Source: Owenia fusiformis (lineage: Eukaryota). From it: 64,000 bases of DNA. Below are positions 3,301-6,300 of this stretch, piece by piece. A model generated the notes under the pieces. It saw only the letters and a program-made list of their open reading frames with translations. It did not search any database and had not been told where the DNA came from. Each line of letters starts with the position of its first letter. Within the stretch, counting starts at the first letter, position 1. Position numbers and translations under genes: made by a program. The stretch lies in NCBI GenBank assembly GCA_903813345.2, contig CAIIXF020000001.1, positions 28,334,001 to 28,398,000 on the forward strand, read 5' to 3'.

Positions 3301-6300
3301 GATAGTCCCAATCCACATATCTGCAAGTTGCTTAATATTAGGAAAATGTTTCCAAATTACACTGTCTCTGCTTTATGCATCTGGAATTCCTGAAATTACC
3401 TACAATATATGCCATAGAAGTAGAATTTCTGTTTGAATACAATTTATATTAAATTGTAACAATATACTTGTTCCATACAATCAGTTTGTAATTTTTCCGC
3501 TGATTTGAATTTCATAACAAAATTACTGCTTCTATGACAAAAATATGCATCAAATCATGTACATGTGGAACAATGTTATAATTTACGTAGTACCAGTAAT
3601 GTATTTATCAATGTATTTATCTGATCTGAATTTATGAAATGATGGTGCCAATAGAGCCTGGGTCTGTTTTAACTGAACTGAAATAAAGAGGAAAGACAAA
3701 ACTACATGATATTGTAACAGAATAAAATCAAGAAATCAAATATTGAACAAAAATGAAATCTTCATAAGAAAGAATTTTTTCTTAATACTGTAGTTGTTAT
3801 TTTTATTCAAATTCGAATTTTAACTTTGGATATTACATAAGTTGTATTTTTATAATTATTATAAACTATATCAAACATTAATAAAATAGCTGATTATAAT
3901 AGTATTCCTGCTTTCAAAGACAACACTTGAATATGAGACACAGTACGTATGTATGTATGTGCATAATTATGAAATAGAAAAAAAAATCATAGTAGAATGG
4001 ACTGAGACAATACTGTACTAGCTTCACTAAAGATGACGGAATGCGAAGATTTGATCTAATCATTTTATTAGTATTCATGCATGTATTGATGGATAAAGCA
4101 TGGAGGATTCGTTTCAAAGCACATCTACAATACAGTACTGGATTTGCAATTACTTTTGTACATATGTGAGTGATCTGTAGTGAACTTGAGGTTTTAATGA
4201 TACCCCAAGTTCAATCCGAGACATTAAAATATGCCTGGAGTATTTCTGGAATAGAAACATGCAGATTGATTGGGGATGTTACGTTTATAGCCCACCCTCC
4301 CTCTGGTCTCGGACCCGACACAACTGTTAACGCGCTCTGTAATATAAAACAAAGGTATAAACCAAATATATGAACAATAAACCAGCATGCAAATACTACA
4401 ACATAGAACCATAAAGGGTAAGAAACAACAAACATACAGAACTAAATGGTCAGCGAAACACAACTGATTCTTAGCTAACTGAAAGTATACCTATAGTCGT
4501 TGTGGCTTCGACTAACCTGTGTTATGATCATACAGTATTCTAGATGTTATAATACGACCACATTGGGAGAAGATACGTTCCAAATCGGCTTGCGTCATTT
4601 TTTGTGTCAGTCCACATATATACAAGTTAGCGCCTTTAATACTCTCGCTACTTGGCCTTGCATACGAAACCTGCCAAAGTAACAGTTATAAGGGGAACCC
4701 GGGTTAGTAAATTTAAAAGAAACAACTTAGAAAGTTTGCAATACCTGTTGTTGGATCGCATAGGATTCTTGAAGTTATTATATTGCCAGCGGGTGAAAAC
4801 ATAGTTTCCAAATCCAACTGAGTCATAGTTTTGGACAGCCCAGATATGTACAAGTTTGCCCCCTTTATGCTTTCACTGCTAGGCCGTGCGAGGGAAACCT
4901 ACACAAAACAGATAAACAGAAACAAAACAAAATAAACAAAAGCAAAATTAAATATGGTAACTGAAATAATACGATAGGAGTTGTGTTGGTCGTCACTTGC
5001 TACTCCCGCCACCATTCATTGTGACATGTTACTGGAACCAATTGTGACATGTTACTAGCACCAAATGTGACAGGTTACTGGAACCAATTGTGACATGCTA
5101 CTGGAACCAAGTCAAGTTACTGGCCCAATTGTGACATGTTACTAGCTAGAATCAGTTATGACATGTTACTGGAACCACTGTAACATGCTACTGGAACCAA
5201 TTGTAACATGTTACTGGAACCAATTTTGACATGTTACTGGAACCAATTGTAACATGTTACTGGAACCAATTTTGACATGTTACTGGAACCAACTGTGACA
5301 TGTTACTGGATCCAAGTGTGACATGTTACTGGATCCAAGTGTGACTTGTTACTGGAGCCAATTATGACATGTTACTGGAACCACGAAGACATGGATACTG
5401 GAACCAGTTTCATGCTAGAGCCACAACCATACAAACTATCTTAACATGTAACAAATATCTTTATGTAAGGCATGAGCAGTTTACACCTTTAAAATGTCCA
5501 TTTCACTAAAAAGTGCAGTGAATACCCAGCGTGAGATAGTTTATATAGCCTGGTCACCCATTCTAAGTTAAAGGCATTCAGTATTGCAGTACAGTTCAAT
5601 ATTAACCAATTTGCCTGAAATCAGCTAGACATTGTTTTTAAATTGATTAGAACTGCAATATTGCCATGGTTCTAATGTACCATAATGACACAACTAGGAA
5701 CGGGCAACCATTGATGCTCAATTACATTGCAGTTTAATACACTGTTCCAGTTTCAAACCTAACTACCAGTATCTCTAGCATAGCTTTCTTCACCGAGAGT
5801 GTTTTTAATTACATGCACTTCCTTTGTATTCTTAGTTATCAATAAAACAATATTTAGAGACAGCGGCAGCCAGAGTCTTAGCATGGTGCCATTAATTGAT
5901 CTAATTAATTATAAAGGTATGAAGCATACCAATGTCTTGCTGGGTTATGATATGGTGATGCTGATAAATGGCTGAGAGTGGATGCTCCTACAGCCATAGA
6001 CATTAGAGACATAGAAGCATAAGCTTGAAACTGGAGCAGTGCCATAGCACATTATCTGTTAATATTCTCAACTAAGAAATTATCATTATTTCAAGCATTG
6101 AAGATCTGAATTTGATACAAAGTATTGTTTTAGGTAGTGGCTATGTAAATAATATTCATTTAAGCTAGTTTTATGCATGTCAGTAAATAGTAGACTACTC
6201 GTAAAATAATGTTACCAGAAAAGCTATAGTAATGTCAATCATGCTTTTTTGCAACAAAGGTTGTCAGAATGATCATTTGCAACCTTTATTTCACTATCAC

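Follow-up and report, generated by a model that had tools for sequence, protein, structure and literature searches.

A 74-nt spacer with a predicted branch point 41 nt from the upstream donor, probably a late steric lock on an older ELAV1 exon pair in Owenia fusiformis

The ELAV1 gene of the annelid Owenia fusiformis contains two adjacent versions of one exon, here called 4a and 4b, which are likely used either-or. A perfect TACTAAC in the 74-nt spacer between them is the predicted branch point of 4b, and its nearness to the 4a donor likely hinders the joining of 4a to 4b, probably as a lock added late to an older switch; this is the reading towards which we lean, with confidence slightly better than even. 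Steric exclusion of exon pairs is textbook matter, and our verdict on the ELAV1 pair is that it is a new instance of the known steric or short-spacer device. The openly available part of the literature on ELAV exon choice yielded no description of a duplicated ELAV exon pair; subscription papers and supplements, whose catalogues could list the pair, lie outside that scope. By the window we mean the whole 64,000-nt stretch of DNA that was analysed, and all ELAV1 features given below lie on its minus strand.

The gene belongs to the ELAV/Hu family. Exon 4a has 100% identity to Elav1 [Owenia fusiformis] and a match to PF00076, the gene product P0186 aligns to HuC with E = 2e-75 and has three RRMs, and the structure matches of the protein to HuC (1fnx), HuD (1fxl), and HuR (4ed5) all have E = 1e-72 or better. 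In gene order, a coding exon at 15924..16134, matching P0186 and P0300, encodes the N-terminus and the first half of RRM1, and exon 3 (7033..7136, 104 nt) encodes the second half of RRM1 and ends in phase 0. Exon 4a (4745..4898) follows with the RRM1-RRM2 linker and the first half of RRM2 in a Ser19/Leu28 type, then exon 4b (4517..4670) in a Cys19 type with its frame intact. Exon 5 (63..300, 238 nt) encodes the second half of RRM2 and the hinge, and the last exon, encoding RRM3, lies just outside the window. Both 4a and 4b are 154 nt (3n+1) and bounded by AG and GT, with 67.5% DNA identity and 37 of 51 amino acids in common; being adjacent, homologous, equal in length and phase, and with intact splice sites, they have the marks of a tandem duplication. 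Searches of the window and of the whole genome turned up no third copy. Both public records of the Owenia fusiformis Elav1 contain 4a only, and 4b is absent from public gene models; half of RRM2 has a second, unannotated version in a neuronal marker gene that is widely used in spiralian work. The intron upstream of 4a also holds a minisatellite of 16 copies of a 23-nt unit (5018-5383), and elsewhere in the window, at about 48,500-52,000 on the plus strand, there are long open frames like those of an LTR retrotransposon, whose snippets we take to be gag-like and integrase-like.

The frames of the 4 possible exon combinations differ. Transcripts joining 3-4a-5 or 3-4b-5 stay open. Double inclusion (3-4a-4b-5) runs into a stop in 4b after 7 codons, 369 nt upstream of where exon 5 ends, and double skipping (3-5) into one 220 nt upstream of that point, with a further splice junction downstream. 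By the usual rule, an early stop ahead of a downstream junction makes a transcript a target of nonsense-mediated decay (NMD), and transcripts containing both exons or neither are predicted NMD targets. A preliminary description of this DNA had proposed NMD as a backup against the joining of 4a to 4b, and the frame analysis bears that out with the early stop in 4b and the junctions downstream, the decay itself being predicted.

The spacer is a GT...AG intron and reads as the reverse complement of 4671..4744, as the preliminary description had it, and its TACTAAC and branch A position agree as well. The heptamer occupies intron nt 36-42 (4703..4709) and is also a core motif for SF1 and Quaking; the predicted branch A is nt 41 (position 4704), which leaves 33 nt to the intron end. 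The AGs within the spacer are the one at nt 18 and the acceptor itself, with an AG-free zone of 56 nt. A weak alternative candidate that had also been named, TTATAAC (4685..4691), is indeed present, with its A at nt 59 (position 4686), at -15. The distance of 41 nt is below a donor-branch threshold of about 50 nt that comes from mammalian and yeast work, not from annelids; the A at nt 59 would exceed it. The 4a donor, CAG/GTATTG, is weak, at the 15th percentile when scored in-sample among predicted introns. A hairpin at this donor is predicted, but its mean unpaired value of 0.34 against a median of 0.41 over 296 introns, and a fold z of +0.65, led us to reject it.

Whether 74 nt is short depends on the genome. 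A literature search found no published intron-length distribution for Owenia fusiformis, so introns were predicted from our own spliced profile alignments, with a 30-nt floor, in two gene families and without RNA support: 194 calls came from 19 of 20 myosin stretches (L009 was left out) and 105 from 40 of 40 Ras stretches. The median length of these 299 predicted introns is 435 nt. The three calls below 110 nt, all of them weak, were set aside (a 40-nt call inside an open frame, and 51- and 68-nt calls in a weak alignment tail), leaving 113 nt as the shortest credible length, 39 nt above the ELAV1 spacer; the proposed check against minimum intron length comes out in favour of the spacer being unusually short. 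At -15 to -45 in the 296 introns, TACTAAC occurs 0 times (about 0.4% per intron is expected from composition), ACTAAC 0, CTAAC 7, and CTRAY 37 times. The choice of TACTAAC was post hoc, and the identical heptamer stands before exon b in 3 of the 8 distinct orthologous spacers described below. A branch placed even at -45 in any of the 296 would leave at least 68 nt to the donor. This sample, predicted as it is, says that the genome would be without a large class of tiny introns and that both 74 nt and the 41-nt spacing would be beyond the normal range.

These lengths bear on a competing reading that we regard as somewhat unlikely but give real weight, namely that the 74-nt intron can be spliced, that exclusivity comes wholly from regulated exon choice and NMD, as would presumably be the case in relatives whose spacers are long, and that the 41-nt spacing arose as a side effect of drift. 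With either branch A, such splicing would need an intron 39 nt under the shortest credible one sampled. Excerpts of PMC6692369 likewise speak against it, giving about 50 nt as the donor-to-branch distance needed in vitro, with assembly severely impaired when the intron is 70 nt long and abolished when the distance is 35 nt. In its favour are the alternative branch A at nt 59 and, from the available parts of PMC4165533, the observation that in Caenorhabditis elegans 14 of 19 non-3n clusters rely on NMD, the ELAV1 pair being 3n+1, and that all five of the clusters with a too-short intron have 3n exons. The comparison with relatives, taken up below, also favours it.

Closely spaced duplicated exons recur in this genome. 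Spacers between duplicated exons measure 35 and 31 nt in Argonaute (L162:3142-3464 and 5275-5452) and at most 40 nt in DDB2 (L158, minus strand, 1760-2090), with wider spacing in the PDE10 and myosin exon clusters. Short spacers between duplicated exons are thus recurrent here, the Argonaute and DDB2 lengths showing that such spacers do contract in this genome. ELAV1 is a milder case, and since the Argonaute and DDB2 spacers are tighter, the 41-nt spacing in ELAV1 is by itself a modest result. The myosin stretches contain tandem exons of their own: one myosin heavy chain gene (G000:C9:37,970,001-38,000,000, covering L007-L009, minus strand) contains one head exon in 14 tandem matches, one of them short, as well as 7 tandem matches to another exon and two pairs, and two other myosin genes have tandem exon copies at L018:438-1069 and L016:6904-7586. 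PMC3912159, as far as its available portion indicates, deals with myosin exon clusters.

RNA evidence comes from three stranded raw-read runs (X19-X21) aligned to window positions 1-5000, a stretch that ends before exon 3; 6-12% of each run was read, and 21, 12, and 31 reads aligned, 64 in total. The sole joint listed from the three runs over that stretch is 4a to exon 5, with 2, 4, and 9 reads, 15 altogether, and 4b has a depth of 0 in all three runs among the 64 aligned reads. Exon 4a is spliced past 4b to exon 5. Because 4b has no coverage in these runs, missing 4a-4b reads say nothing about mechanism. Run X19 also has low intronic coverage on the gene's strand at about 1170-1840 and 2170-2670 of the window, without a listed joint, which would be pre-mRNA or an unannotated exon. 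Run shares of 0.38 (seven runs) and of 0.69-0.72 (four runs) are consistent with one exon and with two, respectively; as shares alone, they were not counted as 4b use.

A silent 4b would also be expected if it were a decaying, unused copy in Owenia fusiformis, with an exclusion mechanism unnecessary. The zero coverage in the three runs and the 4a-only public records fit that account, which we nevertheless consider very improbable, as 4b keeps its frame and splice sites, has 86% identity to the b-type segment of a chiton, and retains the diagnostic residues of the b type. Contigs of a further run, X1, which was aligned to the same positions and resembles DNA in having continuous contigs and an adapter-like end, also speak against decay, with 24 substitutions over 1-3338 and 0 over 4015-5000 (Poisson p about 0.001); as a comparison within one run, from contigs that drop variants, this gap hints weakly at constraint around both exons.

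Relatives provide the test of conservation. A metagenome scan gave 71 loci, 14 of which have a then b in tandem, both bounded by AG and GT, and these 14 reduce to 8 distinct spacers, seven loci being of one type, of 95, 172, 174, 262, 276, 426, 487, and 729 nt. Phyla of the contigs were assigned by likeness to named proteins, from which we infer that L028, the L031 group, and L041 are bryozoan-like, L037 and L039 clam-like, and L027, L030, and L040 annelid-like. A good branch motif lies 25-40 nt before b in 6 of the 8 spacers (3 TACTAAC, 2 CACTGAC, and 1 TACTCAC), at donor-branch motif distances of 66, 222, 241, 453, 694, and 149 nt, and the L030 and L039 spacers are without one. None of the 8 places a strong branch motif closer than 50 nt to the donor, so the close spacing is not conserved. 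All 8 are longer than 74 nt, and an oyster-like read-through protein implies a spacer of 236 nt; these points speak for the reading of a spliceable intron. In L031 and L041, candidates for distant branch points close to the donor (nt 10-12) were rejected, with many AGs following them, and the AG-free zones of 21-89 nt in the orthologous spacers argue against distant branch points. Judged from sequence, the conserved feature is the exon pair together with a strong branch motif before b, and not the spacing. Of the earlier proposal of steric exclusion at 41 nt, then, the part that stands is the short intron with a distance below the mammalian threshold of about 50 nt, and the part that does not is the expectation that relatives keep it, their distances running from 66 to 694 nt.

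The two acceptors differ in kind, and this asymmetry is what relatives keep. Before exon a, the best branch match is at most 5 of 7 positions in 9 of 9 genes, and the tract of a is richer in U than that of b in 7 of the 9, being equal in 2. The 4a acceptor tract of the window (4899..4958), U/UG-rich and without a good branch motif, has a T fraction of 0.63, a value reached by 0 of 296 sampled acceptors, and four TTTNTTT matches. Proteins of the ELAV family favour U-rich RNA, and because of that preference it is possible that ELAV, or another U-binding protein, binds the 4a tract, which with ELAV would amount to autoregulation. The annelid-like loci L027 and L040 have, in addition, a stretch rich in CA over the first 60-90 nt of the spacer, directly following the a donor.

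The branch motif of 4b invites another explanation, that ACUAAC is mainly a repressor site for Quaking or another STAR protein, silencing 4b in most cells, with the spacing incidental. The bipartite consensus of Quaking is an ACUAAY core with a UAAY half-site. In keeping with the naming of ACUAAC as an SF1/Quaking motif in the preliminary description, the spacer contains a Quaking-type ACUAAC-N14-UAAC, in which the TAAC of TTATAAC is the half-site; the L028 spacer contains a half-site also, a STAR-dimer gene is present in the genome, and 4b is silent in the three RNA runs. Mammalian QKI represses exons in competition with SF1 at ACUAA branch sites, according to the accessible text of PMC13004596. 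We nonetheless think this explanation quite unlikely as the main one. An ACTAAY core is missing from the last 60 nt in 5 of the 8 orthologous spacers, the bipartite form is found in 1 of the 8, and CACTGAC, which two spacers have, fits pairing with U2 and SF1 rather than the Quaking core.

Base pairing might enforce the exon choice instead, by competing docking and selector sites of the Dscam or 14-3-3 type. Over 10 bp, intron nt ~56-65 match a site ~188 nt downstream of the 4b donor, and duplexes slightly past the shuffle minimum occur in L027 (upstream), L037 and L039 (downstream), and L040 (upstream), in comparisons that used few shuffles (5-12) and omitted 3 of 18 (L040 downstream and both for L041). 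In the window itself, the best duplexes, at -15.9 and -21.2 kcal/mol, do not stand out from the shuffles (means -20.0 and -19.8, n = 12), and the local fold has z = +0.65. Of the alternatives, we give this one the least credence, and it would be most surprising if pairing proved to be what decides between 4a and 4b.

The exon pair appears to be much older than the short spacer. Among 73 records in ten mollusc and annelid clusters, 63 have one 51-aa segment, 9 are fragments with none, and 1, a Mya gene model, has both in tandem. The two segment versions are found in gene models from chiton, abalones, three octopuses, Pomacea, Batillaria, oyster, and scallop, with mollusc gene models carrying either version singly. 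At column 19, all 10 positional a copies have Ser and all 10 positional b copies have Cys, though Ser also occurs in two snail b-type isoforms. On a tree of only 51 columns, a single branch (93/76, unstarred; 92% of bootstraps) sets apart all 17 b rows, with 0 of 500 shuffles as clustered, and the a rows are split by the outgroups. The simplest reading is one duplication before the split of annelids, molluscs, and bryozoans, as we infer from these segments. Many metagenome contigs (L051-L075) hold a second ELAV-like exon, intron-bounded, in single copy, and with Gly at column 19, possibly that of an Elav2 paralogue.

The reading we prefer, a late steric lock on an older switch, would join these strands as follows. 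Exon choice would be made by regulated competition between two unlike acceptors, that of 4a having a U-rich tract and a poor branch motif and that of 4b a strong branch motif of the SF1/U2 type, and NMD would filter out the transcripts with both exons or with none. Because the spacer would never need excision on its own, it would be free to shrink, and in the Owenia lineage it may have shrunk below normal intron size, likely adding a steric block there. The block is plausible in Owenia fusiformis because the intron is unusually short for this genome, and it is probably a late addition because relatives keep the exon pair with longer spacers. A spacing that is lineage-specific, in an exon pair and branch motif that are old, suggests that shrinkage of a spacer can bring about a steric lock at a late stage. 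A wider and more speculative version, which we think unlikely, is that ELAV1 has an ancient and undescribed spiralian switch of its RRM2 exon, common to annelids, molluscs, and bryozoans, with a U-tract read by ELAV itself (autoregulation) selecting a and an SF1/Quaking branch site selecting b, and that the enforcement of exclusivity has turned over, Owenia gaining its steric lock by spacer shrinkage. If that were true, the spacer series of 74, 95, and 172-729 nt would let the spiralian donor-branch threshold be read directly.

Among known systems, the vertebrate steric-interference pairs include alpha-tropomyosin exons 2/3 and alpha-actinin, as given in the available text of PMC7969005, PMC6692369, and PMC4165533. 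In OGDH, the branch points of 4a/4b are 25-41 nt from the donor (PMC7969005, in excerpt), and the predicted branch A of ELAV1, at 41 nt, is likewise less than 50 nt from the upstream donor. The likeness stops there, as far as those excerpts go: the OGDH branch points are remote from the acceptor and accompanied by a long pyrimidine tract, whereas the ELAV1 motif is at -33 with an AG-free zone of 56 nt, and the OGDH distance is kept across vertebrates, whereas that of ELAV1 is not kept (66-694 nt in relatives). The closeness in ELAV1 comes from the 74-nt intron, with the branch at a normal distance from the acceptor, unlike the distant-branch-point type.

Other regulated exons share single features with the pair. 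The ELAV1 protein is like HuC, HuD, and HuR in having three RRMs. Bee elavl2 also varies the region at the same RRM2 exon boundary, but it does so by inserted exons in the RRM2 loop and the hinge and not by a duplicated pair, and the words 'mutually exclusive' occur 0 times in the accessible text of PMC8553928. The mammalian SF1/Quaking case of PMC13004596 shares with ELAV1 an ACUAAC branch motif ahead of an exon, the ELAV1 exon being silent in the three RNA runs; as its available part describes it, that case is a dual-ACUAAC substrate studied in cells, and ELAV1 has one core and a half-site known from sequence. The available portions of PMC5589949 (oyster AOX) and PMC7489019 (annelid Elav1/Elav2) have no bearing on mechanism, and those of PMC7489019 contain no account of the duplicated pair.

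In the human catalogue of mutually exclusive exons, according to the available part of PMC5740500, a donor-branch distance below 50 nt accounts for 57 clusters (9%) and non-3n exons for 377 (60%), and the ELAV1 pair, although from an annelid gene, fits the second class and, by its predicted branch A, the first. The too-short spacers of C. elegans, such as egl-15 at 14 nt and let-2 at 30 nt in the excerpts of PMC4165533, are the remaining comparison. Like them, the ELAV1 spacer is below the normal minimum intron, as set for ELAV1 by the predicted-intron sample; they differ in being under 40 nt with 3n exons, whereas ELAV1 has 74 nt with 3n+1 exons, on which NMD can also act. With these differences, the ELAV1 pair is closer to the short-spacer class than to the distant-branch-point type.
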